Notes under the pieces: generated by a model
Databases searched by the model: none
Seen by the model: the letters and a program-made list of their open reading frames with translations, nothing else
Told to the model about the DNA's origin: nothing
Part shown: positions 15,758-43,630 of the stretch, piece after piece
How the letters are laid out: each line of letters opens with the position of its first letter
Numbering within the stretch: the first letter of the stretch is position 1
Translations under genes and position numbers: made by a program
NCBI GenBank assembly: GCA_964507445.1
Contig: CAZDQF010000017.1
Location: 28,613 to 92,612 of the forward strand
Direction of reading: 5' to 3'
From: an uncultured Isosphaeraceae bacterium
Lineage (GTDB): Bacteria > Planctomycetota > GCA-002687715
Length of the DNA: 64,000 nucleotides

Positions 15758-17137
15758 TTGAACCCACCTCGATCCCGAACTCGCGAGATCGTCGCCCTGG
15801 CGGCCCCGGTGGTCCTGGGGCAGGTCTCCAACGTGGTGGTCGGCCTCACCGACACCATCATGATCGCGGACACGGGACAGGCGCCCCTGGCGGCGCTCGG
15901 CCTGGCGGCGCCGGTCTTCCTCATCGGATTCCTGGTGTTCTCCGCCTTGTTTCAAGGCACCCAGACCATCTGCGCCCGACGCCTGGGCGAGGAGCGGGTC
16001 AAGGAGACCGGCGTGGTCCTCTCCAGCGCCCTGGTGCTGGCCATGGTCATCGGCATCCCGGCCAGCGCCCTGGGGTTCCTCCTCCCCGGCCCGCTGATGG
16101 ATGTGATCGCCACCGACGGCGAGACCGCAACCATCGCCACGGAGTACCTCAACTACCGCTGGGGCGGCGGCATGTGGCTCATCGTCATGGCCTTCGCCTT
16201 CCGCGGCTTCTACTGGGGCCTCGGGCTGACGCGCACGGACCTGCTGGTGAGCCTGATCTTCAACCTGGCCAACGTGGTCCTCAACTGGGTCTTCATCTAC
16301 GGCAACCTTGGGGCCCCCTCCATGGGCGCCGCGGGTGCGGGACTGGCCTCCGCCCTGGCGAACCTCCTCTCCGTGGTGACGTTCCTCGTCCTGACCCTGA
16401 GGCCGAAGATCCAGGCCCGCTGCGGCGGGTTCCCCTGCCGTCCGCAACGGAAGATCTCCCTCAACGTACTCCGGCTCTCCCTGCCCAGGTCGGCCCAGGC
16501 CATCGCCTTCACCCAGACCATCCTGTTCTTCAAGATCGTCGGCGACAGCGCCGGCCAGGAAGGGCTGGCGGCGTCCGCGGTGATCTGGCGCTTCATCGGC
16601 TTCACGGTCCTCGTGTCCCTCGGGTTGGGCACGGCCACCGCCACCCTCGTGGGTCGCGAGCTGGGCGCCGGACGCCCGGACTCCGCCGAGAAGTTCGGCT
16701 GGGCGTCCATGCGCGTGGGCATGGTCACGGTGTTCTGCCTGGCCGGGATCTTCGCCCTGTTGCGGGAGCCGATCCTGGTGATGTTCTTCCAGCGGGACCC
16801 TGACGTGGGGTCGACCACGGCTCTGACCCCCGAACAGCTCGTGGCCCTCACCACGGCCCCGTTCCTGCTGATGCTCGGCTTCCAGGTGGTGGACGCCGTG
16901 GGCATCGTCCTGGCCCGCGCCCTCAACGGCGCCGGCGCGGTGATGTACGTCATGTGGACGGAGTTCGTCGTGGCCTGGGCGGTGTGCATCCCGGCGACGT
17001 ACCTGGGCGTTCACCTGTTGAACGACTCCGACCCGCTGCTCGGTGCGTGGTGGGGATGGGCCGCCTACTGCACCGCCTGGGCCGCCGCCATGCTCTGGCG
17101 CTGGCGGGGCGGCACGTGGAAGGGCATCAAGGTCTGA
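15758..17137 (+). CDS. MATE-family multidrug/solute efflux transporter
   Basis: A 459-aa 12-TM protein with the NorM/DinF-like N-terminus (IVALAAPVVLGQVSNVVVGLTDTIMIA). Confidence 0.85.
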   Translation: MNPPRSRTREIVALAAPVVLGQVSNVVVGLTDTIMIADTGQAPLAALGLAAPVFLIGFLVFSALFQGTQTICARRLGEERVKETGVVLSSALVLAMVIGIPASALGFLLPGPLMDVIATDGETATIATEYLNYRWGGGMWLIVMAFAFRGFYWGLGLTRTDLLVSLIFNLANVVLNWVFIYGNLGAPSMGAAGAGLASALANLLSVVTFLVLTLRPKIQARCGGFPCRPQRKISLNVLRLSLPRSAQAIAFTQTILFFKIVGDSAGQEGLAASAVIWRFIGFTVLVSLGLGTATATLVGRELGAGRPDSAEKFGWASMRVGMVTVFCLAGIFALLREPILVMFFQRDPDVGSTTALTPEQLVALTTAPFLLMLGFQVVDAVGIVLARALNGAGAVMYVMWTEFVVAWAVCIPATYLGVHLLNDSDPLLGAWWGWAAYCTAWAAAMLWRWRGGTWKGIKV

Positions 17138-17186
17138 CCGTCGATCACACCTTGACCTGACGGACCCCACCGGGTGTCATGCGCCC

Positions 17187-17678
17187 ATGCCCGGCTCACC
17201 TCCGCAGGTCAACGCCTTCGTCATCTGTGATCAGGCCTTCCCCCAGGCAGGGACGGGGAAGTGGTGCGTCATCGGGACGTTCGGCGTCATCTGGGCGCAA
17301 CGGTTCCCGGTCACCCACGCGCCCCTGGTGCTGTTCATCGGCCTCTCCGACTTCGAAGGCAACTGCACCGTGGCGGTGGGGATCCGGAACGGGAGCGGCG
17401 CCCCGGTGACCCTCCCCGCTCAGGATCAGGAAGGCAATCAGATCACCGAGATCAAGATGCAGTTCCAGGCCGTGCCCATGAGCGTGGCGGAGTTCGCCGT
17501 GCCGTTCCCTCCGGTGACCTTCGAAGAGCCGGGGAGCTACACGCTGGAGCTGAGCGCGGACGGCGTCATGCTGGCGGCCCGCTCCTTCCGGGTGGAGAAG
17601 GCCCCACCCGCACCGCCTCCGGGCAAGATGCCCCCCGGCGGCTTCCCCCAACCTCCCATGTCGGGGAACGAGGAATAG
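17187..17678 (+). CDS. Hypothetical protein (about 163 aa) with a Pro-rich C-terminus
   Basis: ATG at 17187 inside the longer ORF 17043..17678. It has non-antisense-like composition and sits between MATE and top6A. Confidence 0.4.
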   Translation: MPGSPPQVNAFVICDQAFPQAGTGKWCVIGTFGVIWAQRFPVTHAPLVLFIGLSDFEGNCTVAVGIRNGSGAPVTLPAQDQEGNQITEIKMQFQAVPMSVAEFAVPFPPVTFEEPGSYTLELSADGVMLAARSFRVEKAPPAPPPGKMPPGGFPQPPMSGNEE

Positions 17679-17696
17679 CGGGCAGCCCCGTCGGCC

Positions 17697-19103
17697 TCAG
17701 GGCAGGAACCCGCGGGGGTTCTTGAGCTTGGCCGGCAGGTACGTGTCCAGCACGTAGTTCAGGCCCCATTTGGCGAGGGCCTGCTGCTCCGCCCTGACCC
17801 CCATCTTCAGCAGCTGCTGCATGGCCTTCGTCCACGGCTTGTGGGCCTTGAAGAACGGGTCGTTCTTCAAGGCGTCCTTGGCCCGCCTCACGTCCACGTC
17901 CTTCAGCGGGTGGGTCGGCAGCTTGTAGTCCAGGATGTCCTGGGGAGTCACCCCCAGGAAGCGAGCCTTGGGGACGCAGTAGAACTGGTTGATGTGGGCG
18001 GCGTTGCCCGATCCCACCTTCAGGCTGCGGTAGATGTTGCTGATCCCATAGGGGTCGCAATCCACGAAGGCGTAAACGGGGATCTTCTGGCTGTCCGACA
18101 GACGCCGGATGAACCGGCGGCAGGCCCGGGTGGGGACCCCGCTCATGGAGACGATCACACAGCGGGCATTGGCCGGGTAGGCGTGGTACTGCAGGCGCTG
18201 GAACATGCCGCCCGTCTCGATGGCGAGGATGAACCGGGCCTTGGTCCTGAACTTCAGGTGCTCCACCGAGTGCGGGATGGTGTAGGCGCCGGACCCGAAC
18301 TGGGTGCAGTCGATCTCGATCTGCTTGCCGGTGGCCGGATCGCGATCGATCACCACCAGCTCTCCCGCCACGGCGCCGCCATGCTCGTCCGGATAGAAGC
18401 GGAGCTGTTCTCGGGTGACGCCATCGAGGGAGAAGGTCGCCTCGATGTCATCCATGACCGTGTCCGACTCGGTCTGCTGATCGAACCGGGCGTCCCCCCA
18501 GTTCTTGCTCTGGTAGTAAGCGTCCCGCTTGGTGGCGAACGTGTCCTCGCGCACCATCTCCTTGGACAAGGCCATCATCCGCAGGGTCTGGGCGAAGGTC
18601 CGCACCGTGTTCACGGTCAGGGTACGGGTCTTGCGCTGGCGACCGATCTGGAAATAGCCCACGCGAGCGTCGTAGCGGACGTTGGAGAGGGCCCGCACGG
18701 GCAGACTGAGCTCGGGCTTGGCGCCCCGCTTGATGCGGGCGTGCACGCCCGCCGCCGCCTTGTCGATGGCCACGACCACCTTGGCCTTCTTCCACGCGTC
18801 CCGGCGAGCCCGCCTGCGGGACGCCCCGCGGGCCCGGCCACCCACCCCTGGTGGTAAGCCCTGGGGTTCATCCGCCGACTCCTGCCGAGGCAGCTCGTCC
18901 GCGGCGGCGTAGGCTCGCTTCCGCACGCTGACCGTGGCCTCCAGAGCGGCCTTGGGGGACGAACGGCCGCCGGCCGCGGGCTTCTTCCTCGCGGCGGGCT
19001 TCTTCCTGCTCGCCTTCTTCTTCGCGGCGGGCTTCTTCCTGCTCACCTTCTTCTTCGCGGCGGGCTTCTTGCGCTTGGCTGCGACCTTCTTCTTTCCGGC
19101 CAT
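17697..19103 (-). CDS. top6A: DNA topoisomerase VI subunit A (Spo11/Top6A) with a Lys/Ala/Pro-rich N-terminal tail
   Basis: Toprim motif YAFVDCDPYGISNIYRSLKVGS and a winged-helix region (…TLVRTFAQTL…). The first 55 or so residues are KKPAAKKK-type repeats. Its start lies 1 nt after the top6B stop. Confidence 0.85.
   Translation of the reverse strand: MAGKKKVAAKRKKPAAKKKVSRKKPAAKKKASRKKPAARKKPAAGGRSSPKAALEATVSVRKRAYAAADELPRQESADEPQGLPPGVGGRARGASRRRARRDAWKKAKVVVAIDKAAAGVHARIKRGAKPELSLPVRALSNVRYDARVGYFQIGRQRKTRTLTVNTVRTFAQTLRMMALSKEMVREDTFATKRDAYYQSKNWGDARFDQQTESDTVMDDIEATFSLDGVTREQLRFYPDEHGGAVAGELVVIDRDPATGKQIEIDCTQFGSGAYTIPHSVEHLKFRTKARFILAIETGGMFQRLQYHAYPANARCVIVSMSGVPTRACRRFIRRLSDSQKIPVYAFVDCDPYGISNIYRSLKVGSGNAAHINQFYCVPKARFLGVTPQDILDYKLPTHPLKDVDVRRAKDALKNDPFFKAHKPWTKAMQQLLKMGVRAEQQALAKWGLNYVLDTYLPAKLKNPRGFLP
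18976..19075. repeat. Imperfect roughly 39-bp tandem duplication (gcgggcttcttcctgctc[g/a]ccttcttcttcgcggcg) that encodes the KKPAAKKK tail of Top6A
   Basis: Read from the sequence; it is coding. Confidence 0.6.
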
Positions 19104-19104
19104 C

Positions 19105-20775
19105 TCAGAGCTTCCGACTACGCTCGAGGATGTCCTCGAGCCTGGCCACGGCCTTGTCCGTGTCCTTGTCCGACAGCTCCAGGATCTCCTGGAGCGCCAC
19201 GCCGATCTGGGGCAGGTAACGGGAGATGAAGTCGCGCTTCTTCATCTCGTCCGCCTCACGACGGCGGCGGGAGAGGAAGGCCCCGAGCTTGCGTCCGCAC
19301 TCGTTGAGGGCGAGGCGGATCTCCTTGATGATCTCCGGGTAGTGCGCCACCGCCTCCTTGCTCTCCGAGGTGAAGGGCACCCAGACGGACGCCACGTGAA
19401 CCAGGACGGTCAACGGGCCAACGGGCAACGCGCCTCGCGACTGCTGCAGGCCGTAGTTCTTCCACGACGTCCCGACAATGGCCTTGTTGATGGCGCAGGC
19501 GCCGGGCTGATACAGCAAGGGCACCCGGTTGGCCAGACGGAGCACCCGGGCCAGGTCGTCCGCGGGGAGGCTCCCCCCCCAGGCGATGCCGGCTTCAACC
19601 ACGAACGGGTTGCCCCGGTAGACCGCGGGCGGACGGGTGACGGCGGTGAAGAAGTCCGCGTCCACTTCCTTCTTGAGCCCTTCCAGGATCAGGTCCTGGC
19701 CCACCGGGACGACGCAATCCGTGGCGGGCGCCATGACCCTCGTCTTCTGGATGGCCTTGTAGAGCAGGTCCGCCTCTCGATTGGCGATGGTCGTGGGGCG
19801 AGCCTTGGGCGAGATCCCCGCCTGTTCGCAGATGGCGTCCGCCACCGCCGCGGACACCCTCGAGAACGTGTCCTGCAGCGCCCCCTTGAGGGTGCGTGCG
19901 CCGCTCTCCTTCATGAGGCGTGCGAGCACCCCCAGCTCCACGCCATGGGGGTGAGGCTTGATCTGCCTGGCGGGTTCCGGGACCACCTTGCAAGCGCGCC
20001 TGAACACCACCAGCTCCTCCCCCGGAGCGCGGTAACTGATGGCGGCGTGGGGGTTGGCCATGGCGGTCTGCTGCAGGTACTCGTCCACGGACTGCCGCCC
20101 CTTCAGGTAGCGACCCTCCAGCTCGATCTCCACCCGGGTCCCCGACCCCTTGCGGAAGCCCTTGGCCTCCCGCTCCCGGGACACCTCCGGACGGTTACGG
20201 GCGGTGTCGATGCGCACGTCCATTCGCACCGCCTTCCCGGTCCTCGAGGTGCGCGTGGTGATGCGCATGGGCTTGCCCGTGGTCAGCTGCCCGTACATCC
20301 CGGCGGCGGAGATGCCGATCCCCTGCTGACCGCGGCTCTGCTTCAGGCTGTGGAACTTGGAACCGTACAGGAGCTTGCCGAAGATCTTCCCCACCTGCGC
20401 CTTGACGATCCCCGGACCGTTGTCCTCCACGGCGACCACGAAGCGGTCGTCCTCACCCTCCACGGGGATGATCTCCACCAGGATGTCCGGCAGGATCTCC
20501 GCCTCCTCACAGGCGTCCACGCTGTTGTCCACCGCCTCCTTGATGGTGGTCAGCAGCGCCTTGCGGGGGTTGTCGAAGCCGAGGAGGTGCCGATTCTTGG
20601 CGAAGAACTCGGACACCGAGATCTCGCGCTGGCCGCGGGCCATGGTCTCCGCCGTGGCCTTGGTGCGCCTCGCCTTGGAGCGGGAAGGGGCCGCGCCGGA
20701 CGAACGCCCGACCGCCTTCTTGCGAGGCCGCTTCTTCGCCGCTGCCTTCTTCTTCCTGCCGCCGCCGACCGCCAT
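19105..20775 (-). CDS. top6B: DNA topoisomerase VI subunit B (GHKL/Bergerat ATPase) with a Lys/Arg-rich N-terminal tail
   Basis: …SEFFAKNRHLLGFD…, the Bergerat-fold ATP-lid VEDNGPGI, …GQQGIGISAA…, and a transducer domain. The N-terminal 45 or so aa are RKKKAAAKKRPRKK. Confidence 0.85.
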   Translation of the reverse strand: MAVGGGRKKKAAAKKRPRKKAVGRSSGAAPSRSKARRTKATAETMARGQREISVSEFFAKNRHLLGFDNPRKALLTTIKEAVDNSVDACEEAEILPDILVEIIPVEGEDDRFVVAVEDNGPGIVKAQVGKIFGKLLYGSKFHSLKQSRGQQGIGISAAGMYGQLTTGKPMRITTRTSRTGKAVRMDVRIDTARNRPEVSREREAKGFRKGSGTRVEIELEGRYLKGRQSVDEYLQQTAMANPHAAISYRAPGEELVVFRRACKVVPEPARQIKPHPHGVELGVLARLMKESGARTLKGALQDTFSRVSAAVADAICEQAGISPKARPTTIANREADLLYKAIQKTRVMAPATDCVVPVGQDLILEGLKKEVDADFFTAVTRPPAVYRGNPFVVEAGIAWGGSLPADDLARVLRLANRVPLLYQPGACAINKAIVGTSWKNYGLQQSRGALPVGPLTVLVHVASVWVPFTSESKEAVAHYPEIIKEIRLALNECGRKLGAFLSRRRREADEMKKRDFISRYLPQIGVALQEILELSDKDTDKAVARLEDILERSRKL

Positions 20776-20817
20776 GGGCCGGTCAGTATAGCGGCTGCGG
20801 ACCGACCGGTGCCCGGC

Positions 20818-22134
20818 TCAGGACCCGATGGCGCGATCCACCACGTGCAACGCCTTGTCAATGATGGCGAAGCCCTCCCGCAGCTGCTCCTCGTTGATCA
20901 CCAGGGGCGGGTTGACGAAGAAGGTCCCCCCCCAGACCACGGTGAACAGGCCGCGGTTCAGCAGCTCGGCGTTGAACTCCTTCATCACCGGGTGGGCGCC
21001 CCTGAAAGGCACCAGCCGGGCACCGTCCTGCGTACCCAATTCCACCAGACCGAACAGCCCGATGTTCCGTGTGGTGCGCACGGAGGGGTGGGCCTCCTCA
21101 AGGCGCTCCATCTCCTCCCGCATGACCGGTCCCAGACGAGCGGCGTTGCCGACCAGATCCTCGTCAGCGATGACGTCCAGCACCGCGAGGGCCGTGGCGC
21201 AGGCCAGGGCGTGGGAGTTGTAGGTCAACCCACCCCAGTACACGTTCTCGCGGAAGTGCTCCGCCAGGTGGCGGCGCATGCCCACGGCCCCCATGGGGAC
21301 GTAGGAGCTGGTCAGGCCCTTCGCCATGGTCACGAGATCCGGGACGATCCCCGCGTGCTCGAAGGCGAACATCCTGCCCGTCCGACCGAACCCGGACATG
21401 ACCTCGTCGCACACCAGGAGGATGCCGTGGCGCTCGGTCAGCTCCCTGACGCCTTCCACCCAGCCCGCCGGGGGCGGGACGACGCCGTTGGTGCCGATGA
21501 TCGGCTCCATGAAGAAGGCGGCGATGTGCTCGGGGCCCTCGTACTGGATCACCTCCTCCAGGTAGGTCAGGTGATTGCGCGTGATCTCCTCCGCGGACTC
21601 GCCGAAGGAGTAGTCGTAGGGCTGCGGGTCCATGACACGCACCACCCCCGGCATCCCCGGCTCATGTTGCAGGCGCCGCGGGTCACCGGACAGCTGCATG
21701 CAGGCGTGGGTACCCCCGTGGTAGCTGCGGTATCGGGACAGGATCTTGTGCCGGCCCGTGTACTGCCGCGACACGTTGATGGCGCTCTCGTTGGCGTCCG
21801 CCCCTCCGAGGGTGAAGAAGAAGGCGTCCATGTCCCCGGGCATGATGGCCGCCAGCCGCTCACCGAGGCGGGCGCGAGGCTCCGTGGCCGATCCGGGCCA
21901 GGCGAAGGTCAGCTTGTCCATCTGCTCCTTCATGGCTTCGAGGACGCGAGGGTGGCCGTGGCCCACGTGGACGGACATGAGCTGGCTGTTGAAGTCCAGG
22001 TACCGCTTGCCGTCCGGGTCCGTGAAGTGCACCCCCTGAGCGCTCTCCACCGGCAGGGGCTTCACCTGTCCGGTGGCGGACCACGCGAACAAGGTGTGCT
22101 CCTGACAGAGCCGGATCATCTCCTCTGCATTCAT
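20818..22134 (-). CDS. Class III (omega) aminotransferase, beta-alanine/3-aminoisobutyrate--pyruvate transaminase-like
   Basis: …LLVCDEVMSGFGRTGRMFAFEH… with the PLP-lysine in DLVTMAKGL. It lies 4 nt downstream of mmsA. Confidence 0.85.
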   Translation of the reverse strand: MNAEEMIRLCQEHTLFAWSATGQVKPLPVESAQGVHFTDPDGKRYLDFNSQLMSVHVGHGHPRVLEAMKEQMDKLTFAWPGSATEPRARLGERLAAIMPGDMDAFFFTLGGADANESAINVSRQYTGRHKILSRYRSYHGGTHACMQLSGDPRRLQHEPGMPGVVRVMDPQPYDYSFGESAEEITRNHLTYLEEVIQYEGPEHIAAFFMEPIIGTNGVVPPPAGWVEGVRELTERHGILLVCDEVMSGFGRTGRMFAFEHAGIVPDLVTMAKGLTSSYVPMGAVGMRRHLAEHFRENVYWGGLTYNSHALACATALAVLDVIADEDLVGNAARLGPVMREEMERLEEAHPSVRTTRNIGLFGLVELGTQDGARLVPFRGAHPVMKEFNAELLNRGLFTVVWGGTFFVNPPLVINEEQLREGFAIIDKALHVVDRAIGS

Positions 22135-22138
22135 CGCT

Positions 22139-23626
22139 TCAGCTCATCCATGTCTGGTCTCTCTGCGACGCCCACTTGGACGTGATCTTCCGTGGTCGGG
22201 TCCAGAACCGGAACCCGTCCCGGCCCGTGAGGTTGCCGTGTCCGAACAGGGAGTTGTTCCAGCCACCGAACCCGAAGGGCTCCCGCGGCACCGGCACCCC
22301 CACGTTGACGCCGCACATGCCCGCGGACACCCGCTCCATGACCTCCCGGGCCACCTCCCCGGAGGTGGTGTAGACGCTGGAGGCGTTGCCGTACTCGGAC
22401 CCGTTCTCCACGGCGATGGCCTGATCCAGGCTGTCCACGCGGATCACGGAGAGCACCGGCCCGAACACCTCCTCGCTGCCCACGGGCATCTCCGGCCGGA
22501 CGCCGTCGAGGATCGTGGGGCCGACCCAGTACCCGCCGTCCGTGGCCCGCTGCCCCCGACCGTCCACCAGCACCCGGGCCCCGGCCGCCACGGCGGCGTC
22601 GATGTAGGCGTTGATACGCTCCATGGAGTGCTGGCTGGTGACCGGTCCCATGTCCTCCCCCACCCGGATACCGGCGGCGCTCTGCACCACCTCGTCCAGG
22701 ATGTGATCCACGTCGCCGACCCCCAACATGACCGACGCGGCCATGCAACGTTGACCGGCGCATCCGGTGAAGGAGTCCACCACATTCCGGGCGGTCAATT
22801 CCACATCAGCGTCGGGGACGACGATGAGGTGGTTCTTGGCGCCGCCGAGGCACAGCAGGCGCTTGCCCGTGGCGGCTCCCCGTTCGTAGACGTTCCGGGC
22901 GACGGCCGTGGACCCCACGAACGCCAGGGCCGCGATGTCAGGAGCAACCGCCAACGCCTCCACCGCCTCGCGGCCACCGTTCACCACGTTCAGGATCCCG
23001 TCCGGGAGCCCCGCCTCCTTGAACAACGCGGCCAGACGCTGCATGGACAGGGGCACCTGCTCCGAGGGTTTGATGATGAAGGCGTTGCCGCCGACGATGG
23101 CCTGGGGGAGCATCCACATGGGGACCATCACCGGGAAGTTGAAGGGGCAGATCCCCGCCACGACCCCCAGGGGCTCGTGCACCATCATGCAGTTGACGCC
23201 GCGGCTCACGTCCAGCTGCTGTCCCGTGGCCAGGTTGGGCAGCGAGCACCCGAACTCGACGCACTCGATGGCCTTGGCCACGCTGGCGGACGCCTCCGCG
23301 AAGGTCTTGCCGTTCTCGTGGGACGCCAGCCACGCCAGCTCTTCCTGGTCACGGATCAGGAGCTCGCGCAGCCCATAGAACACCTGCGCCCGGTCCCGGA
23401 TGGACGCCTGCCCCCAGCTGGGCTGGGCCGCCCGCGCCGCCTTCACGGCCGCCTCCACCGCCGCGGCGCCGCTCAACGGGACGCGCCCCATGGCCTCACC
23501 GTGCCGCGGATTCACCACGTCCACCAACGCCGCGTCCGGGTCCTCCACGAACACCCCGTCGATGAAGTTCCGCGCGTCCACGAACCGGCGGAAGGCGTAG
23601 CTGGTGGCCTCGAACTTGCCGAGCAT
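22139..23626 (-). CDS. mmsA: Methylmalonate-semialdehyde dehydrogenase (CoA-acylating)
   Basis: ALDH fold with the mmsA-type catalytic region FTGCAGQRCMAAS and …FVGSTAVA…. ATG at 23626; the track ORF begins at TTG 23653. Confidence 0.85.
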   Translation of the reverse strand: MLGKFEATSYAFRRFVDARNFIDGVFVEDPDAALVDVVNPRHGEAMGRVPLSGAAAVEAAVKAARAAQPSWGQASIRDRAQVFYGLRELLIRDQEELAWLASHENGKTFAEASASVAKAIECVEFGCSLPNLATGQQLDVSRGVNCMMVHEPLGVVAGICPFNFPVMVPMWMLPQAIVGGNAFIIKPSEQVPLSMQRLAALFKEAGLPDGILNVVNGGREAVEALAVAPDIAALAFVGSTAVARNVYERGAATGKRLLCLGGAKNHLIVVPDADVELTARNVVDSFTGCAGQRCMAASVMLGVGDVDHILDEVVQSAAGIRVGEDMGPVTSQHSMERINAYIDAAVAAGARVLVDGRGQRATDGGYWVGPTILDGVRPEMPVGSEEVFGPVLSVIRVDSLDQAIAVENGSEYGNASSVYTTSGEVAREVMERVSAGMCGVNVGVPVPREPFGFGGWNNSLFGHGNLTGRDGFRFWTRPRKITSKWASQRDQTWMS

Positions 23627-23804
23627 GGTGCGGTCTCCGTCAGAGGACGCCAACCGGGCGGGGGGTGCCGCCGGGGTGATCCTCCTGGAAGACCACCGGA
23701 CCGGACGTCGCGGTCATCTCAACGCCGGAGCGCACCGTTGTCCAGCACCGGGTTCAAGCAGAACGGAGTTGGCGAGTACGGACCTGGCAGCGTCGGACTG
23801 CGCC

Positions 23805-26800
23805 TCAGGGGCTGGTGCGGACGTCCACCTGACGGATCCGGATGAGCTCCGCGCCCTCCAGGGGTGCCACGCGGAACCAGCGGACGCCGACCCCCTCGAG
23901 AGGCGGGAACACCGCGGTCCGCTCCACCCACTCACCGTCGGCGGGGATGGGCAGGTTCATGGAGCGCATGGGAGCCTCCCCCGGCATGGAGCCGTAGGCC
24001 ACGTCCACCCTGACGCGAGCCACCTCCTGGTGACGGGAGACCGCGGCCAGCGCCACCTTGACCTGCAACGGCTGCCCCTCGTCCTTCAGCAACGGGCTCA
24101 TGAGCCATGCCTCGTCGCCGGTGGCGGCCCACGTGAACGCTCCCTCCGCGTCCACGGACGCCGCGGTCACCTGCGGCGACAGGATCCAGGCACCTCGGAT
24201 CGCCTCCCCATCGTGGGACAAGGCTGCGGGGTCCGCCCCCTCCGCACCGCGCCCCGGAAACGACAGCGGCAGGGTGCGTTCGAACGCCGCGGGCACGTTC
24301 ACCGCGTCGGCTCCGGGCCAGACCCCTGCCAGGCGCACGGACAGGTCCCCCCCTTCCGCGGGCGCCACCCCGGGCAACCACACCCACGCGGTCTCACCGG
24401 CCGGGAGTCCGCCGTCCGCCAGGGGGAGCTTCCTCACGCTGAAGGGCAGCCGATCCTCACCACGGGCAAAGCCCGCCAGGAACAGGGGCGCCACAGGCCA
24501 GCGGCCTCCGGGCAGGAAGGCCGGCCCCGGATTCCGCACCCGAGCACGCCACAGCCCGGGCTGCGACGGCACCTGAGACACCAGGGGCGACGCCTCCACC
24601 TCCTCGATCACCAAGGGGAGGCGATCCGGCGCCCGGAGCGCCGCGGGCAGATGGCGCGCCGCCGTCTTCCACGCGTCCACGGCGCCGCTGGCACGCACAC
24701 GGTCACACAGGGCGTCCCGTTCTTCCGTTCGGCCCAGCAGATGCCACGAGCGCGCCGCCTGCAACAGGCACGGCGCGGCGGAACGATCGTCTCCCAGTGA
24801 CGCCGCGGCCTTCAACCAGAGGTCCACGGCCGCCCGCGTCCGCCCTGCGGCCGCACCATCCCGGGCCTCCGCGGCCGCACGACCTGCCGCCTCGAGCTCG
24901 GCGCGACGCGCCGGCCCCAGGACCTGATCCGCCACCTGACGGGCGCGCTGCTGCCCCTCCGGGTCCCACGCGGAGAGAGAGGCGGACCAGGCGATGGCGG
25001 CGTCCGCGGGATCAAGCCGCGACAGCAACGAGAGGGCGGCGGCCCGCACCCGATGATCTACGAACGGCTCCTGCAGCAGGTCCCAGAGCGCCGGGACCAC
25101 GGAAGAGGCAGGCACGCCGGCGAGGCCCTCCAGCACCAGCACCGCACGCTCCGGATGGGTCGCCAGCGGAACGACGCGGGCCTCGAGAGAGGGACGGTGC
25201 GAGGCGTCCCCCGACATGCTCAGGCCCACCTGACCCAGGAGCCGATCCAACCCTCGCGGCCCCGCCGCCGCACCCTGCAAGACCGTACGCCCGGCGTCGT
25301 CCCCGGCCCGCGCCAGCATCACCGCGGCGCGCAGCGCGACAGGTCGCGGCGCCGTCAACAGAGACCGCAGGGTCTCGTCGCGCTCCTCGGCGGCGGTCCG
25401 GTCGTCCCGCGGCCCCCGCAACAACAAGTCCAGCCCCGCCACGGCGCTGGCCCACCCATGGTCCGGCGCCAGCAGGCCCCAGGCGAAGGGGCGCACATCC
25501 GATCCCAGCACCGGCTCACAGGCCAGCAACAGGAGCCGACGCTCCCGCTCGCCCACCCCGGGGTCCTGGAGCACCAGGGGCAACGCCTCCCTCAGGCCCG
25601 GCTCCCGACCCCGCACCGCCTTCATGAGCCGCCCGACGCGCTCCTCCGACGGCAGCTCGCGGACCTGATCCAGCAAGCCCGGCGCGGCCTCCACCGGGTC
25701 ACGGTTGATGGTCCTGCACTCCCGCTTCAACACCGCCAGCATGCCCTGCATGCGCGCCAGGACATCGGGTCGCTCGGCGGCGACGTTCAACAACTCCCCC
25801 GGGTCCACCGCCATGTCATAGAGCTCGGCGATGCCGTCCGTGGGGTTCCAGATGAACTTGTACTGCTCGTGACGGAAGGCGTCCCGGTTGGCGGAGGTGG
25901 AGGACAGCTCCGCGATGGTCCCGGGGAGCTCCGCCAGCTGCACCTGCTCCGGTGCGTCCTCGTCGCCGTCGCCTCCGAGCATGAGGGGGATCAGGCTGCT
26001 GCCCTGCAAGGGGAGCTCGTGGTCGATGTCGAGCAGGTCGAGCACCGTGGGCATGATGTCCACGTTCTCCACCAGGTTGGTGATGACCCGCGGCCCCACC
26101 TGGGGGGCGCGCACGATCAAGGGAACATGGAGCTGTTCTTCATAGAGGGTCGAGCCGTGATACCAGGTGCCGTGGTGGCCGAAGGCCTCGCCGTGGTCCG
26201 AGTTCACCACGATGACCGTCCTGTCCAGTTCCCCTCGCTCCCGCAGGGCCTCCATGACCCTGCCGATCTCCGCGTCGGCGCGGGCGATCTCCGACAGGTA
26301 GCGCTCCTCGAGACCGTTGCCGAAGTCGTGCTCCTCGTGGAATCGATAGGGGCGGTGCGGCTCCATGTAGTGCAGCCACAGGCACCACCGGCGATCCCCC
26401 GCCTGCTCCAGGAAGGTCAGGGCGCAGTGGGTCTGCGCCGGCCCGTCATATCGCCAGGTCTTGGGTCTCCCCGGCTGGACCACCTCGAAGCCCTCGGCCA
26501 TGACCTGGTATTGACCGGCGCCCAGCTCCGTCGCCGGCACCCCCGGGACCGTCCCCGTGTAGAACCCGCGCTCTCGCAGCAGGCCCGCGAGGGTCAGGTT
26601 GTTCTCCTGTCGCTCGTCGATGTCGCGGCTGGACCGGAACAGCGGCGTGGCCGTGGGGTATCGGCCGTAGAACATGGACTGGAAGGAGTAGTGGGTGATG
26701 GGGAATTGGGACGCCGCGTTGGCGAACCGGGTCCCCTTGGCGGCCAGCTGGTCCAGCACCGGCGTGGTCACCGGACGCCGACCGTAGCAGGACAGCCCGT

Positions 26801-28350: not shown

Positions 28351-29127
28351 TCAGCTCCTCCTCCGCAGCACCAGGGTCACGTCGCCGCAGTTCGGGTGCA
28401 GCCCCCGGTCCGGGTAGCCCTCCTCCTCCATGGCGTGGACCGCCATGAGGTCGAACCCACCCAGGTCCTCCAGGAGCTGGAGCAGCTCCGGGTAGCGAAA
28501 GGTCTGCAGCTCGTACTCGTCATCCAGCCGCGGTGGGCAGGCCGCCACGCTGCTGGTGAGCAACGTCAGCCTGATGGTCTCGCGACAGGTCGCGGGATCA
28601 CGGCGCACGCTCTCGTAGCGCACCGCCGCCATGCCGCCGGATGGGATCAGGGTCGGGGGGCTCTCGAACAGCTCCAGGACCTCCTCGTCCACCCGGTCGC
28701 CGTCGAAGACACAGAGCCCCATGAAGTAGAGGCCCCCGGGGCGCAGCTGACCGTGCACGGACCGCAGGTGCGCGGTCACCGCCTCCAGATCCGGGAGGTG
28801 CCCGACGGAGGCGCTCATGTTCACCGCCACGTCGAAGGGGCCGCCCGTGAACTCCAGGGCGCGCATGTCTCCCTGGATCAGCTCCGCGCCCTCTCCGAGC
28901 CGTCGGCGTGACTCCTCGATCATCACCGCGGACAGGTCGTTGCCCGCCACCCGATGACCGTAGACGGAGAACGGCAGCAGCCAGGTCGCGGGCCCGCAGC
29001 AAGGGTCCATGACCGACTCCCGCGGGCCGTCCATGTACAGGTCAAGCCAGCGGAGCACCTCCTGAAACAGGTCCGGCTCCGGGGCGAGCAGCGTGGCGTA
29101 GACCTCCGGGTGTGCGTAGAGCTTCAT
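28351..29127 (-). CDS. Class I SAM-dependent methyltransferase
   Basis: Motif I (VMDPCCGPATW) and the overall 258-aa MTase fold pattern; its stop directly abuts the phosphatase start. Confidence 0.7.
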   Translation of the reverse strand: MKLYAHPEVYATLLAPEPDLFQEVLRWLDLYMDGPRESVMDPCCGPATWLLPFSVYGHRVAGNDLSAVMIEESRRRLGEGAELIQGDMRALEFTGGPFDVAVNMSASVGHLPDLEAVTAHLRSVHGQLRPGGLYFMGLCVFDGDRVDEEVLELFESPPTLIPSGGMAAVRYESVRRDPATCRETIRLTLLTSSVAACPPRLDDEYELQTFRYPELLQLLEDLGGFDLMAVHAMEEEGYPDRGLHPNCGDVTLVLRRRS

Positions 29128-29175
29128 CTGCGCGCACAGGGTAGCACCCCGCCCGGTCCGGTTAGACTTCCGTCC

Positions 29176-31089
29176 ATGCTGTCTCTGCTGAAGGCCCTTC
29201 GATCCACGCTCAAGACCCTGAACGGCGATTCCACGCCGGCGTCATGCGCCGCCGCGGTGTTGTTCGGCGCCCTGCTGGGGCTCACGCCCTTCGGGTTCCA
29301 CACCGTGCTGCTGTTCGCCCTGTTGCTGGTCTTCCGGGTCCCCGTGGGTCTTGGGATGGTCTGCGGCGCCGTCATGGGCCTGCTACGGCTGGCGGTGCTG
29401 CGGCTGGCCATCGGCCCCCTCGGGGCCACCCTCCTCGCGGAGGGGAGCGCCACCCGGGGCCTCGTGACCTGGCTGCTCGACATCCCCGTGGTGGGCCTGA
29501 TCCCCCTGGAGCGCCACGCGGTCCTGGGAGGTCTGGTCATGGCCTCGGTGATCGGAGCGCTGCTCTGGTATCCGACGGTGCTCCTGGTCCGCCGGTATCG
29601 GGAGCGGCTGCAGGACCGGCTGACCGGCTCCCGCGCCTACGACAAGGTGGCGTGGCTGCTGGGGCGCCCTCCGCAGCCCGACCCCGACCGCAAGGCCCCG
29701 TCCATGATCCGGTTCAAGCTGACGGGGACGGTGCTCGTGCTCCTCGTGCTCCTCGGATGGTGGGGCGCCGGCCCCGCCGTGGATCGGGCGTTGTCCTCGT
29801 CCCTGGAGGAGCTCCTGGCGGAGGACGTGGAGATCGGCCGGGTGACCTGCTCCGTGTTCTCCGGCGACCTGCTCATCGAAGACCTCCGGGTCGGCGGCGA
29901 CGGCGCCGAAGGGACCGAGACCCTGGGGGCGGACCGGGCCCGGGCCAACGTCTCCGTCCTCGACCTGCTGCGACGCAAGGCGGTCATCGAGGACCTGGAG
30001 ATCGACCGGCCCCGGCTGCGGCTGGAGACGGACCAGGACGGCAAGCTGGTGATCCTCAAGCGCCACGAAGAGCGCGACCGGGAGACCGGCCTGGACCCGG
30101 TGGAGATCCTCCAGGTCGCCCGCGAGAATCACGGCAAGCTGAGCGAAGCCCGCGACTGGTTGCAGCGGGTCCGCGAGCTGATGGCCTATCTGGGAGCCCG
30201 GGACGACGCCGCGGAGGAGCAGGACCTGCTCGACTTCACGGAGCTGCCGGAGCTCGGCCCTCGGCTGGTGGTGGGGTCTCTGCGCATCAGCGGGCTCCGC
30301 GTCGGCCTGGGAGACGACGGTCCCGCGCTGCGGGAGTTCCGCATCGACGGCACCCAGATCAGCACCGACCCTGCGCGCCACCCGGAGCCCATGACCGCCG
30401 GGGTCACCGGGCTGCTGGGGACCGACGACCCGGCGAACCTGGTGCTGCAGAGCACGTCGCGGAGCGCGGGGGGCGTGCTGCGGGTGGACTTCCCATCCGG
30501 CGAGCTCAGCAACGTGGGGGTCTCCATGATCGGGCCCTTGCTCTCCGACACCCTTCCCTTCGTCTTCAAGGGCGGCACCGTGGCCCTGGATCTGGGGGAA
30601 CCCAACGACTGGATCACCGGTGACGGCCGGCTCGACCTCACCACTCGCCTGATCCTGAAGGACATCCGGGTGGCCCCCCGCCCCGGCTTCAAGACCCTGG
30701 CGGGCATCGACGCGGGCAAGCTCTGCGCCGCCATCTCCGACGCCGGGACCTTCGGGCTCGACGTCCGGGTGAGCGGGGACTCCTCCGATCCTCAGGTGGA
30801 CGTGGGCGACACCATGGACAACCTCATGCGGCTGGGAGCGGCGGCCTTCCGCAAGCAGGCCCTGGGAGAGCTGGAGCGACGCTACCCCGGCATCGGCGCC
30901 GTCCTCTCCAACGACGGGCCCCTGGGGCTGCCCACGGACGCGGCCGGGATCGCCGGCGCCGTGGGTGGGCTCCTCGACCTGAAGAAGAAGCCCTTGGGGT
31001 CCGGCGCCAAGCCCGACCCCAAGGATGAGCTCATCAAGGGCCTCGGCGGCCTGCTGGGCGGCAAGAAGAACAAGAAGAAGAAGGACTGA
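29176..31089 (+). CDS. Membrane protein with an N-terminal DUF2062-like domain and a long AsmA/DUF748-like C-terminal region; the C-terminus is KKNKKKKD
   Basis: ATG at 29176 (MLSLLKALRSTLKTL…, TM helices), then roughly 500 aa of beta-rich repeats. Confidence 0.55.
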   Translation: MLSLLKALRSTLKTLNGDSTPASCAAAVLFGALLGLTPFGFHTVLLFALLLVFRVPVGLGMVCGAVMGLLRLAVLRLAIGPLGATLLAEGSATRGLVTWLLDIPVVGLIPLERHAVLGGLVMASVIGALLWYPTVLLVRRYRERLQDRLTGSRAYDKVAWLLGRPPQPDPDRKAPSMIRFKLTGTVLVLLVLLGWWGAGPAVDRALSSSLEELLAEDVEIGRVTCSVFSGDLLIEDLRVGGDGAEGTETLGADRARANVSVLDLLRRKAVIEDLEIDRPRLRLETDQDGKLVILKRHEERDRETGLDPVEILQVARENHGKLSEARDWLQRVRELMAYLGARDDAAEEQDLLDFTELPELGPRLVVGSLRISGLRVGLGDDGPALREFRIDGTQISTDPARHPEPMTAGVTGLLGTDDPANLVLQSTSRSAGGVLRVDFPSGELSNVGVSMIGPLLSDTLPFVFKGGTVALDLGEPNDWITGDGRLDLTTRLILKDIRVAPRPGFKTLAGIDAGKLCAAISDAGTFGLDVRVSGDSSDPQVDVGDTMDNLMRLGAAAFRKQALGELERRYPGIGAVLSNDGPLGLPTDAAGIAGAVGGLLDLKKKPLGSGAKPDPKDELIKGLGGLLGGKKNKKKKD

Positions 31090-31723: not shown

Positions 31724-33670
31724 CTACTTCCAGTGGAACCGGGCCCGCTGCTTCACGTGGCAGTCACGGCAGGAGGCGTCCGATTCCGACGGGATCGGCA
31801 CGTCCTGGAGGCGCGAGGCCCCCTCGGTTCCCCGATGGCAATCGGCGCAGTCGGCGTCCACGTGGCCACGACTGCGGTGCGAGAAAGTGTTGGGCTGGGG
31901 CCAGGACCGCATGAGCTCGCCGCCGGTGTAGACCGGGTCCCCTTCCAGGTGACACGCGTCGCAGTCCCCGCCGCCCACGTTGTCATGGTTCTCGTGACAC
32001 GGCGTGCAGGATCTGGCCTCCGCCGTGGTGCCGGGCACACTTGAAGACCGCAGGTCGTCCCCCATGGTGTGGCAGGAGAAGCAACCGTTCTTAAGGCCGG
32101 GCTTGCTGGTGTCCAGGTGCTTGCCGTGGGGGAACTGGTTGACCCCGATCAACCCCGGCAGCCCCGGACGCAGGCCCGCCTCGGGGACGCCGGTGTCATG
32201 ACACTCCGCGCAGGCGGCGTCGCCCGCCGGCCCGCGGTAGATCCCCTTGGTCAATCCCGCCGACGCCTCCCCGGAGACCACGTCGAGGTGACATGACCGG
32301 CACTCGCCGTCCGCCGCCGCGTCCATGGACGAGAGGTGCACGCCGTGCAGGAACGGTCGGTCCGCGAGCTTCGAAGCAAACACCTTGCCGTCGCGATGAC
32401 AGTCCGCGCAATCCTTCCCGCCGGTGTCGAACTCGTGCTGATGGTCCCGCAGGGCCAGGGCGTAGACGTGGGCCCCCACCGTGAGCTCCGCCCGGGCCAG
32501 GCGCTCCACGGTCTTCAATGGAGCCGCGTGCAGGGTCTGGTGGCACTGGGCGCAGCTGACCCCCTGGTCCGCGTCCGCCCCGTGCCACGTCGCCTGCCAG
32601 CGCACCGCCTCCGGCGCCGCCTCCGACCCGTGGCACTCCTGGCAGCGCTCGTACTTGATGCGTTTGAACTCCCGCTCCGGGATGCCCCGCGATGGATCGG
32701 ACGCCTGGGCCACGTCCGCGTACTCGTGGCAGGTCTCACAATCCTCGATCCGCATGGCGCCGGCGCCCTCTCCCATGGCCTCCGCAGACAGGTGCTTGTC
32801 ATGGGGGAAGGTGTCGTAGGTCAGCGCCACCCAGGGGGTGTCGTCACGGGGAGGCACCGGCGCGGTGATCTCCGGGATCAGGTCTCCGTGGCAGTCCACG
32901 CACGTGTCCTCCGCGCGCACGGAGGTCAGGCTCGCCGTGTCCGTGCCGCGATGATCCACGTGACACGGCTGACACGATTGCCCGTCCCAGGAGACGGGGT
33001 GGGTCGGGTTCTCCACGATGTCCGCGTGGCAGGCGCTGCAGGCGGAGGGAGGTGTCCCCACCCAGCCCGAGTGGCACGCCGCGCACGAGCCGTCCCCGTG
33101 CCCCGCCGCCCGGAGCGCCGCCAGCTGCTCCGGCGCGTGGGTCGCCCAGTACCCCGGCGTGTGCACGCGGGCCAGGGAGCCGGGGTTCACCAGGGGCTCC
33201 TCCACGGCGTCCACGAACGACAGGGCGAACAGCGCGCCCACCAGCACCACGGCGGCGTAGTTGCCCCAGCGCAGAGGGCGGAACCGGCCGAACTCCACCT
33301 CGTAGCGAGACCACCGCAGCGGGTCCTCCTTCTTGTCATAGAAGAAGGACTGCTCCTTGAGGGCGCAGGTGAGGGTCCCCTTCTCCTCGTCGATCTCGCA
33401 GGTGAACTTGGAGACCCCGATGACGACGCCGATCTTGCCCTCGCCCTTGATCTCCGTGCGCTCGTCCACGGAGACCCCGGCCATGTAGGTCCCGGACGAG
33501 GTCCCCAGGTCCTCGATGAAGAAGCGGCCGTCTTCGTGGGTGAACGCACAGTGACGTTCCGCGACCATGGGGTCGTCCACCACCAGGTCGCAGGTGGAGC
33601 GTGTCCCCACCACCCCCGCGCGGTTCTCGATGGTGGCGGTCGCGCCTTTCTTCTTCAGGACAATCGCCAC
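31724..33670 (-). CDS. FHA domain - transmembrane helix - multiheme cytochrome c (15 CxxCH) fusion protein
   Basis: N-terminal FHA signature (VGTRSTCDLVVDDPMVAERHCAF…IEDLGTSSGTYMAGV), a TM segment (YAAVVLVGALFALSFV), then 15 CxxCH motifs. The probable start is GTG 33670, 1 nt after the upstream stop; the track ORF begins at GTG 33736. Confidence 0.8.
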   Translation of the reverse strand: MAIVLKKKGATATIENRAGVVGTRSTCDLVVDDPMVAERHCAFTHEDGRFFIEDLGTSSGTYMAGVSVDERTEIKGEGKIGVVIGVSKFTCEIDEEKGTLTCALKEQSFFYDKKEDPLRWSRYEVEFGRFRPLRWGNYAAVVLVGALFALSFVDAVEEPLVNPGSLARVHTPGYWATHAPEQLAALRAAGHGDGSCAACHSGWVGTPPSACSACHADIVENPTHPVSWDGQSCQPCHVDHRGTDTASLTSVRAEDTCVDCHGDLIPEITAPVPPRDDTPWVALTYDTFPHDKHLSAEAMGEGAGAMRIEDCETCHEYADVAQASDPSRGIPEREFKRIKYERCQECHGSEAAPEAVRWQATWHGADADQGVSCAQCHQTLHAAPLKTVERLARAELTVGAHVYALALRDHQHEFDTGGKDCADCHRDGKVFASKLADRPFLHGVHLSSMDAAADGECRSCHLDVVSGEASAGLTKGIYRGPAGDAACAECHDTGVPEAGLRPGLPGLIGVNQFPHGKHLDTSKPGLKNGCFSCHTMGDDLRSSSVPGTTAEARSCTPCHENHDNVGGGDCDACHLEGDPVYTGGELMRSWPQPNTFSHRSRGHVDADCADCHRGTEGASRLQDVPIPSESDASCRDCHVKQRARFHWK

Positions 33671-33671
33671 C

Positions 33672-35147: not shown

Positions 35148-35149
35148 GA

Positions 35150-38193: not shown

Positions 38194-38195
38194 GG

Positions 38196-39707: not shown

Positions 39708-39757
39708 GGTGCTCGGTAATCCCCGCTTGTTTGCGGGTATGGTAGCGCATGGTGGGA

Positions 39758-43618
<3,861 letters not shown>

Positions 43619-43630
43619 CTTCCGACTCCC

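Follow-up and report, generated by a model that had tools for sequence, protein, structure and literature searches.

A chromosomal topoisomerase VI gene pair from an uncultured Isosphaeraceae bacterium, with lysine-rich N-terminal tails of a kind common among its bacterial relatives

Topoisomerase VI (Topo VI) was viewed in 2009 as rare in bacteria, the enzyme being recorded in three of about 500 genomes (PMC2647321). Allen and Maxwell (2024) list at least 17 bacterial families with Topo VI, five of them planctomycetal, and report that all listed bacterial carriers have gyrase and that none outside the Pseudomonadota and Terrabacteria has topoisomerase IV (topo IV); they suggest a decatenase role for Topo VI where topo IV is missing and openly state that its role in bacteria is unknown (PMC11302465). 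In the archaeon M. mazei, the KGRR loop, the stalk/WKxY region and the H2TH domain of the enzyme sense DNA crossings and bends (PMC5922973). A T2BI box of type IIB topoisomerases has been described, and the GHKL, transducer, 5Y-CAP and Toprim modules recur in Topo VIII and Mini-A, type IIB relatives that reside on mobile elements (PMC7671362). The plant Topo VI accessory subunits RHL1 and BIN4 have some similarity to the C-terminal domain of eukaryotic topo IIA (PMC2647321), and in the actinobacterial topoisomerase TopA, histone-H1-like lysine repeats are reported to stabilise the enzyme-DNA complex and raise processivity, with the step rate unchanged (PMC7398561). Here we analysed a 64,000-nucleotide stretch (the window, whose coordinates are used throughout) from an uncultured Isosphaeraceae bacterium of the Planctomycetota (assembly GCA_964507445.1, contig CAZDQF010000017.1, positions 28,613 to 92,612 of the forward strand), in which an earlier note made from the sequence alone had pointed to adjacent Topo VI genes with lysine-rich tails on both subunits. 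The locus proves to be ordinary, a chromosomal Topo VI gene pair of a Planctomycetota-type bacterium and typical of a group that is already known and very large.

Both genes lie on the minus strand, and their open reading frames (ORFs) together span positions 17697 to 20775 exactly:

19105 to 20775, minus strand: top6B coding sequence, Topo VI B (ATPase) subunit, 556 aa, identified from the ORF and hidden Markov model (HMM) matches
17697 to 19103, minus strand: top6A coding sequence, Topo VI A (DNA-cleavage) subunit, 468 aa, identified in the same way
19101 to 19107, minus strand: junction TGA-g-ATG, made up of the top6B stop, a 1-nt spacer and the top6A start, an arrangement of the translational-coupling type read from the sequence

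Top6B matched the Pfam families Topo-VIb_trans (PF09239, 3e-58), HATPase_c and HATPase_c_3, and Top6A matched TOP6A-Spo11_Toprim (PF21180, 6e-55), Topo_VI_alpha and TP6A_N, all above the gathering scores. Against the NCBIfam equivalogs, Top6B scored 682 bits with NF003218 (cutoff 274) and 524 bits with TIGR01052 (cutoff 381). Top6A passed its three Pfam domain models and stayed under the cutoffs of all six PRK04342 sub-models of NCBIfam, which are narrow sub-families (best NF003337, 436 bits vs 675). Comparison with solved structures gave 512 bits for Top6B with M. mazei 2q2e_B and 350 bits for the Top6A core with M. jannaschii Top6A 1d3y. These matches bear out the bacterial Topo VI B and A pair of the earlier note, the HMM assignment standing for Top6B in both databases and for Top6A in Pfam, and failing for Top6A at the NCBIfam sub-model cutoffs. 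Most of the PRK04342 sub-models (NF003332-NF003337) give Top6A the name 'DNA topoisomerase IV subunit A', a label that makes it easy to confuse with ParC. The gene identity is that of a Topo VI operon with intact catalytic residues.

The adjacent and coupled genes with a 1-nt spacer, likewise noted earlier, were confirmed by the TGA-g-ATG junction. The junctions of relatives are alike (TGA-c-GTG at locus L082, TAG-cc-ATG at L083), gaps of -4 to +9 nt between the top6B stop and the top6A start are common at other bacterial and archaeal loci, and top6A lies directly downstream of top6B on the same strand in 48 of 80 related loci. No top6A was found within 6 kb of top6B in 32 of the 80, among them many Phycisphaerae, Pirellulales and Sedimentisphaerales genomes, where the subunit genes are apparently unlinked, although some of these absences may reflect contig ends, a few of the contigs being short. 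The unlinked-looking loci include L010, L015, L017, L021, L025-L028, L031, L035, L039 and L043-L045.

The conserved cores of the two subunits comprise the following parts:

20212 to 20562, minus strand: GHKL/Bergerat ATPase domain of Top6B (Pfam HATPase_c and HATPase_c_3)
19732 to 19953, minus strand: H2TH-equivalent region of Top6B (gap-free alignment block to 2q2e_B)
19237 to 19728, minus strand: transducer domain of Top6B (Pfam PF09239 over residues 350-513)
18402 to 18602, minus strand: 5Y-CAP/winged-helix domain of Top6A (Pfam TP6A_N, residues 168-234, 55 bits vs a cutoff of 26)
17724 to 18233, minus strand: Toprim domain of Top6A (Pfam PF21180)

All catalytic residues inspected are present in both subunits and invariant among 42-45 relatives. 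In Top6B the N box (E80/N84, aligned with M. mazei E44/N48), the G1 box (D118-N-G120-P-G122) and the G2 box (G149-Q-Q-G152-I-G154) are invariant in 42 homologues, and the switch lysine K473, which aligns with S. shibatae K427, is invariant among the homologues aligned. In Top6A the catalytic tyrosine Y197 (codon 18513-18515, motif AYY) aligns with M. jannaschii Y103 and is invariant among the window's relatives and across both of the Top6A lineages considered below. The same invariance in both lineages holds for the metal-binding residues E296 and D348-C-D350, which align with M. jannaschii E197, D249 and D251, and the T2BI box (R437-x-E439-x-x-A442) is present and invariant among relatives. 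Top6B also has the W438-K439-N440-Y441 motif and the stalk residue R495, of which W438, Y441 and R495 are invariant and K439 and R495 correspond to M. mazei K401 and R457. Six of the nine basic positions mutated in the M. mazei study remain basic, namely K225, R227, K439, R495, R306 and R346 (the last two equivalent to M. mazei K268 and K308), and three are non-basic: the equivalent of R189 is deleted (Q228 follows), K399 is replaced by S437 and R263 by Q301. The same pattern at the nine DNA-sensing positions is seen in archaeal relatives. We considered whether the N-terminal tails compensate for lost basic core contacts and rejected this idea, since tail-less DPANN relatives lack the same residues and have KGxQ loops that are even less basic.

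Beside the archaeal enzymes (M. mazei 2q2e, S. shibatae 2zbk, M. jannaschii 1d3y), the window pair has all domains and catalytic residues in common, keeps the WKxY motif, stalk R495 and two of the three H2TH basic residues, and shares the B-then-A order with tight coupling that archaeal loci also show. It differs in that the KGRR loop of M. mazei reads KGRQ and is one residue shorter, in the Ser and Gln at the K399 and R263 positions, in the absence from Top6B of the C-terminal Ig-like domain of M. mazei, and in the cationic tails on both subunits, which the archaeal enzymes do not have. The bacterial enzymes of PMC11302465 (for example those from Pirellula staleyi, Thermogutta terrifontis, Anaerohalosphaera lusitana and Anaeromyxobacter dehalogenans) likewise lack the Ig-like domain; they are the same enzyme as that of the window, and from the same phylum, with no essential difference. 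The window's species is not listed in that study, whose alignments were trimmed and which is silent on N-terminal tails; neither 'lysine' nor 'disordered' appears in its text. The adjacent, coupled A and B genes and the intact GHKL ATPase motifs fit a Topo VI holoenzyme and set the pair apart from Spo11/Top6B-like complexes. Topo VIII is a single fused polypeptide with an RVELNAM signature, found on plasmids and integrated elements. By contrast, the window has two separate genes in a chromosomal housekeeping context, its signature reads GVRAEQQAL, and the 64 kb hold no mobile-element genes, which rules out that the pair is a Topo VIII.

The view, repeated in the earlier note, that Topo VI is rare in bacteria no longer holds. 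Besides the 17 or more families of PMC11302465, our search returned more than 8000 homologues per subunit, as a lower bound, at E <= 1e-10; the top matches, 60-83% identical, bore names from Planctomycetota, Acidobacteriota, Hydrogenedentota, Eisenbacteria, Elusimicrobia and further groups. With each species represented by a single genome, a scan gave at least 551 carriers in Planctomycetota, Myxococcota, Acidobacteriota, Spirochaetales, Fibrobacterota, Thermodesulfobacteriota and DPANN/Methanosarcinales archaea, the best species-level match for Top6B being 65% identical. In a simple neighbour-joining tree without support values, the Top6A of the window fell within a multi-phylum bacterial cluster, with DPANN as the nearest archaea and M. 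jannaschii outside. This bacterial cluster beside DPANN and Methanococcales archaea matches the two-cluster picture of PMC11302465; of the phylogeny of both subunits that the earlier note had called for, the Top6A part agrees with published work. The Top6A cores of metagenome-assembled genomes (MAGs) labelled DPANN or Methanosarcinales (L029, L030, L037, L055, L061, L064) are 66-67% identical to that of the window, as close as some Planctomycetota relatives, with M. jannaschii at only 53%; such closeness would fit either a transfer between the two domains in fairly recent times or contigs that were mis-binned.

The tails and the segments within the Top6A extension are as follows:

18969 to 19103, minus strand: Lys/Ala/Pro-rich tail of Top6A, residues 1-45 (18 K, all encoded by AAG, 4 R, 12 A, 4 P, no D or E; net charge +22)
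20656 to 20775, minus strand: polycationic N-terminal tail of Top6B, residues 1-40 (9 K, 7 R, 9 A, 2 P, no D or E; net charge +16)
18981 to 19070, minus strand: 33-bp (11-codon) tandem repeat, in frame, 2.7 copies (Tandem Repeats Finder, 96% matches, score 166)
18828 to 18950, minus strand: conserved bipartite island in the Top6A extension, residues 52-92, with ALEATVSVRKRAY and, about 25 residues later, GLPPG (homologue alignment)

The composition counts support the earlier description of Lys/Ala/Pro-rich N-terminal extensions on both subunits. Lysine makes up 40% of the Top6A tail, a 16-fold enrichment over the window mean, and against the 38 other ORFs of the window (mean 2.5% Lys) its excess has a binomial P of 1e-17 in the Top6A tail and 5e-7 in the Top6B tail. 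The duplication of roughly 39 bp reported for the Top6A extension is in fact the 33-bp unit listed above; its copies encode KKPAAKKKVSR, KKPAAKKKASR and KKPAARKK, copies 1 and 2 being one base apart. The tails are predicted to be intrinsically disordered: in AlphaFold2 models built on homologue alignments, the predicted local distance difference test (pLDDT) score stays under 50 over residues 1-91 of Top6A and 1-36 of Top6B, and the cores are modelled with confidence. Their likeness to histone H1 is one of composition only. They share it with linker histone H1 and the bacterial H1-like proteins Hc1, Hc2 and AlgP, but the isolated tails matched no Pfam family even at E <= 10, so the label 'histone-H1-like' stands for composition and falls for family.

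Within the otherwise fast-evolving Top6A extension, the island stands out in an alignment of three genomes. Its pattern, [AP]S[VFY]x[VI]RxRA[FY] (ALEAxVSVRxRAY) followed at fixed spacing by GLPPG, occurs in 19-21 of the 120 closest homologues, and residues 52-68 were modelled by AlphaFold2 as a low-confidence helix. A search of Top6A residues 46-115 against 1.84 billion representative proteins gave no match at E <= 0.001, which is uninformative, the segment being too short and biased for significance. The four longest Top6A relatives (P0007, P0008, P0012 and P0017) also begin with a D(D)WDVT motif.

The earlier note implied that the tails are special to this locus, and the homologues speak against this. 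We scored 120 relatives per subunit, counting as a basic tail at least 15 aa with at least 25% K+R. Such tails were found in 88 of the 120 Top6A and 92 of the 120 Top6B relatives, with homologue tail lengths from about 20 to more than 200 residues. In a divergent Top6A lineage of Phycisphaerales, with a core only 32% identical and with its catalytic residues intact, all 120 members sampled carried Lys/Thr-rich tails, 30-76 aa long; these members are 76-100% identical to each other. At seven archaeal loci, in contrast, 10-14 non-basic residues precede the Top6A core (a 48-residue reading at L030 may be over-extended) and mostly 10-25 residues the Top6B core (50 in L064), and the chains of the three crystallised enzymes from archaea begin 4-22 residues ahead of the aligned core. 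The rule of taking the first start after the upstream stop over-extends N-termini badly where genomes are GC-rich, neighbouring genes among the 80 loci then seeming to overlap by as much as 1978 nt, and the comparison across loci kept only gaps of -35 to +60 nt between B stop and A start. Cationic tails are thus general to bacterial Topo VI rather than peculiar to the window locus, and the archaeal relatives sampled have none. No description of tails on bacterial Topo VI was found in the Topo VI literature searched.

Some homologues show further variation. At one Phycisphaerales locus (L079, 5794-9014), a Top6B like that of the window (59% identical) is paired with a divergent Top6A (32% identical to the window's, 44% to that of an unclassified archaeon, L006), and this Top6B has a Lys-rich tail at its C-terminus as well (...GDLFGNAIPAKKKRRTKKKAKKTKKKSTRSRS). 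This locus suggests that Topo VI subunit lineages can mix and that tails can sit at either end. QxSLF-type motifs occur in 13 of the 120 Top6B and 4 of the 120 Top6A tails, against 0.1-0.2 expected from shuffled tails, and in several unrelated sequence contexts; examples are LNPQQATLFAAP, RQGSLFDG and QKSLFGKD. Carriers include P0166, P0197, P0141, P0198, P0205 and P0211 for Top6B and P0012, P0017, P0029 and P0108 for Top6A, and the Top6A tail of L046 has QLDLM, possibly a related motif. The bacterial sliding clamp binds the consensus QL[SD]LF, which these motifs resemble. The window's own Top6A and Top6B tails have no QxSLF motif.

The tails change fast. Between the window and L082 and L083, the ratio of nonsynonymous to synonymous substitution rates (dN/dS) is 0.4-0.6 in the tails vs 0.09-0.14 in the cores, reaching 1.09 over the 14 alignable tail codons of one Top6B pair, and the numerous differences in tail length among the three loci are all in frame. 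Because the repeat is near-perfect and similar internal tail repeats occur in a Myxococcales relative (L072), slippage is suggested as the source of new tail sequence. The tails retain their charge but not their sequence, a pattern typical of disordered regions selected for composition, and they are probably selected for charge rather than for sequence.

The reading that we favour, and hold to be moderately probable, is that the window carries a chromosomal operon for a functional Topo VI whose tails act as electrostatic DNA tethers and which probably serves as a decatenase. By homology, the enzyme would be an A2B2 heterotetramer. Two Top6B subunits would bind ATP, dimerise and capture one DNA duplex (the transfer duplex), and two Top6A subunits would cut a second (gate) duplex through Y197 and the Toprim metal site, the first duplex being passed through the break. 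Its likely cellular job would be to unlink replicated chromosomes and remove positive supercoils, the role proposed for bacteria with gyrase and without topo IV. Translation of top6A would be coupled to that of top6B across TGA-g-ATG. Since each subunit has one tail, the heterotetramer would have four disordered cationic tails, which may serve as sequence-independent electrostatic DNA tethers that raise local DNA affinity, hold the enzyme on the nucleoid and aid the capture of DNA crossings or of the second duplex. Judging from archaeal structures, two tails would extend outwards at the ATP gate, the entry point of the transfer duplex, and the two at the N-termini of Top6A would be close to the A/B interface. 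The tails would evolve through in-frame slippage, as at the 33-bp repeat, with selection acting on charge and not on sequence.

DNA or nucleoid binding by the tails, as raised in the earlier note, is plausible. The lysine repeats of actinobacterial TopA are the precedent for tethering. As in the window, degenerate H1-like Lys/Ala/Pro repeats there lie in a disordered terminus of a protein from a GC-rich bacterium. TopA differs in being a monomeric type IA enzyme of single-strand passage, with C-terminal repeats on one polypeptide, whereas the window tails are N-terminal and on two subunits, and the resemblance is a functional analogy only. Plant Topo VI is, like that of the window, a non-archaeal enzyme with parts beyond the A and B cores, but its additions are separate proteins and those of the window are extensions fused to A and B.

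The tails are almost certainly translated, to judge from their third-position G+C content, from conserved residues ahead of the internal starts and from the junction kept in close relatives. The contrary reading, in which the true starts are ATG codon 45 of top6B (20643) and a GTG at about codon 109 of top6A, is very improbable. It can draw on the absence of a Shine-Dalgarno-like sequence ahead of the top6B ATG and on shorter database calls: NCBI calls the Top6A orthologue in L082 (6431-7783) at 356 aa (MEE2711341.1) and another cluster member at 344 aa (MAB89273.1), and a JGI call of a 100% identical protein (P0001) has 360 aa. The JGI call was discarded as evidence for an internal start, the contig ending within the tail, which makes it an artefact; an identical ENA contig (L084) has the same 468-aa gene called, and 12 members of the same 90% cluster as the L082 Top6A are called at 450 aa. 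The NCBI call in L082 leaves a 283-bp 'intergenic' gap that encodes the Top6A tail. The Top6A frames of L082 and L083 open 1-2 nt past the top6B stop, in L082 with a GTG 1 nt past it, and encode a basic tail, followed in L082 by the conserved island. G+C content at third codon positions is equal in tails and cores (0.91 for Top6B residues 1-45, 0.94 for Top6A residues 1-50), and both internal starts have conserved residues ahead of them. In Top6B, residue 41 is the first of the core to align with M. mazei, the conserved A42 and A46 straddle the ATG, and position 45 is Leu in several homologues; because A42 is conserved upstream and position 45 can be Leu, this ATG cannot be the start of the family. 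For Top6A the only ATG is codon 1, and the island lies upstream of every internal GTG except that at codon 20. The claim that translation begins ahead of the tails, rather than at an internal ATG such as 20643, therefore stands.

If the tails are made, they may do something other than hold DNA, or nothing at all. That they are mainly protein-interaction or regulatory modules, which recruit the enzyme to the replisome or a partner, switch by acetylation or phosphorylation, or form condensates with DNA, seems unlikely to us, although several observations suit it: the bipartite island with its fixed spacing resembles a short linear motif rather than bulk charge, the QxSLF-type motifs exceed the expectation from shuffles, and it has been proposed that acetylation of lysines in the TopA repeats has a regulatory role (PMC7398561). 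Yet the tails of the window are without QxSLF, the island is confined to the sub-clade nearest the window whereas charge is universal, and the island search matched nothing outside the family, being made with a segment too short and biased for significance. Such modules and DNA tethering are, moreover, not mutually exclusive. A reading in which the tails are tolerated low-complexity expansions of little or no function, produced by slippage at AAG-rich sequence under weak selection, would explain the high dN/dS values, the wide spread of tail lengths and the very recent 33-bp duplication, with copies 1 nt apart and similar repeats in L072. We regard it as quite improbable in the face of a cationic composition that persists across phyla, in both subunits and in two lineages of Top6A that share just 32% identity, of the absence of tails from the archaeal relatives sampled, of the near exclusion of acidic residues and the lysine enrichment in a GC-rich genome where lysine is otherwise rare, and of length changes that all keep the frame. 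Electrostatic tethering by the tails remains our preferred explanation, and several points weigh against it. Fast evolution and slippage are equally expected of neutral low-complexity sequence, the idea of compensation for lost core contacts failed, the members of the second Top6A lineage are not independent samples, and the archaeal comparison comprises only seven loci and three solved structures. As for the enzyme itself, Top6A scored 436 bits with its best NCBIfam sub-model, under the cutoff of 675, the lack of topo IV genes holds for the 64-kb window and not for the whole genome, and the literature searched held no experiment on any bacterial Topo VI.

Ahead of top6B, the 42-bp gap that follows the aminotransferase gene contains one further element:

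20785 to 20790, minus strand: TATACT, a hexamer resembling a -10 element, its end 9 nt ahead of the top6B ATG

The sequence GCTATACTGAC, which contains TATACT, is kept in L082 and absent in L083, where a Shine-Dalgarno-like GGGAGAG stands instead. The top6BA transcript could be near-leaderless behind this conserved element; a strict sigma-70 promoter scan of 17000-24200 found nothing, and TATACT is only a lead. A terminator scan of the same region gave two terminator-like matches, which is chance level, one of them within the 33-bp repeat. A plus-strand ORF of 1083 aa (18934-22185) lies opposite both confirmed genes and was dismissed as a high-GC antisense artefact.

The earlier note had taken the pair to be resident, without mobile-element context, and the surroundings agree. 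No transposase, integrase, gyrase, topo IV or other topoisomerase gene was found in the 64-kb window, whose GC content is even (0.65-0.74 in 2-kb bins). The neighbours are housekeeping or metabolic genes (FBPase, transketolase, MoxR ATPase, MatE transporter, aminotransferases and aldehyde dehydrogenases), and planctomycete-type families are present (PSCyt1/PSCyt2/PSD1, DUF1501, sulfatases and an FGE-sulfatase domain protein). The order Aldedh, Aminotran_3, top6B, top6A, DUF6941, MatE, MoxR, FBPase is the same in the Planctomycetota MAG GCA_036337665.1, whose Top6B is 83% identical. A mobile-element or recent-cargo origin is ruled out by the lack of such genes, the even GC content and the conserved synteny.

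Other Lys-dense spots in the window are the tail ...GGKKNKKKKD (31033-31089, plus strand) of ORF 28954-31089, a DUF748/YhdP-like, DUF2062-containing protein, a patch near residue 446 of ORF 33672-35147, and the AAKEA repeat of an FHA protein. There are no Lys-dense spots in the window beyond these three and the Topo VI tails, and Lys-rich tails are not a general habit of the genome's proteins. The FHA protein (ORF 38196-39707, minus strand, 503 aa) combines a pair of FHA domains with a membrane anchor at the C-terminus and with some 25 AAKEA units in tandem, resembling an (EAAAK)n rigid helical spacer; its sub-threshold Pfam match to 'Histone H1-like nucleoprotein HC2' (39.7 bits vs a cutoff of 40) is compositional. 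Positions 31724-45556 on the minus strand hold a cluster of large cytochrome-c proteins of the multihaem type, in which MtrC/MtrF-like domains and cytochrome c7/c3 domains occur. It includes a multihaem cytochrome fused to an N-terminal FHA domain (31724-33736), an unusual fusion, and a 1286-aa protein with LVIVD repeats (39758-43618), and is adjoined by a protein with cNMP-binding and 4Fe-4S domains (33672-35147).

In practice, NCBI calls cut the Top6A tail in some genomes and use the name 'topoisomerase IV subunit A', and trimmed alignments would likewise hide the tails. The wider pattern is more useful than the locus itself: nearly all of the bacterial subunits sampled have disordered cationic tails, and their nearest archaeal relatives have none. 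The tails, together with the clamp-binding-like motifs of some relatives, offer concrete handles, testable by truncation, on the role of Topo VI in bacteria. We tentatively suggest, as a possibility rather more doubtful than probable, that the tails are a bacteria-specific adaptation of a Topo VI obtained from archaea by horizontal transfer, that two or more independent lineages of Top6A gained or retained them, in some lineages together with QxSLF clamp-binding-like motifs, and that by tethering the enzyme to the replisome or to a nucleoid free of histones they allow Topo VI to take the place of topo IV in Planctomycetota, Myxococcota, Acidobacteriota and further phyla. If this is true, tethering by the tails would be what makes Topo VI a replicative decatenase in place of topo IV across several bacterial phyla.

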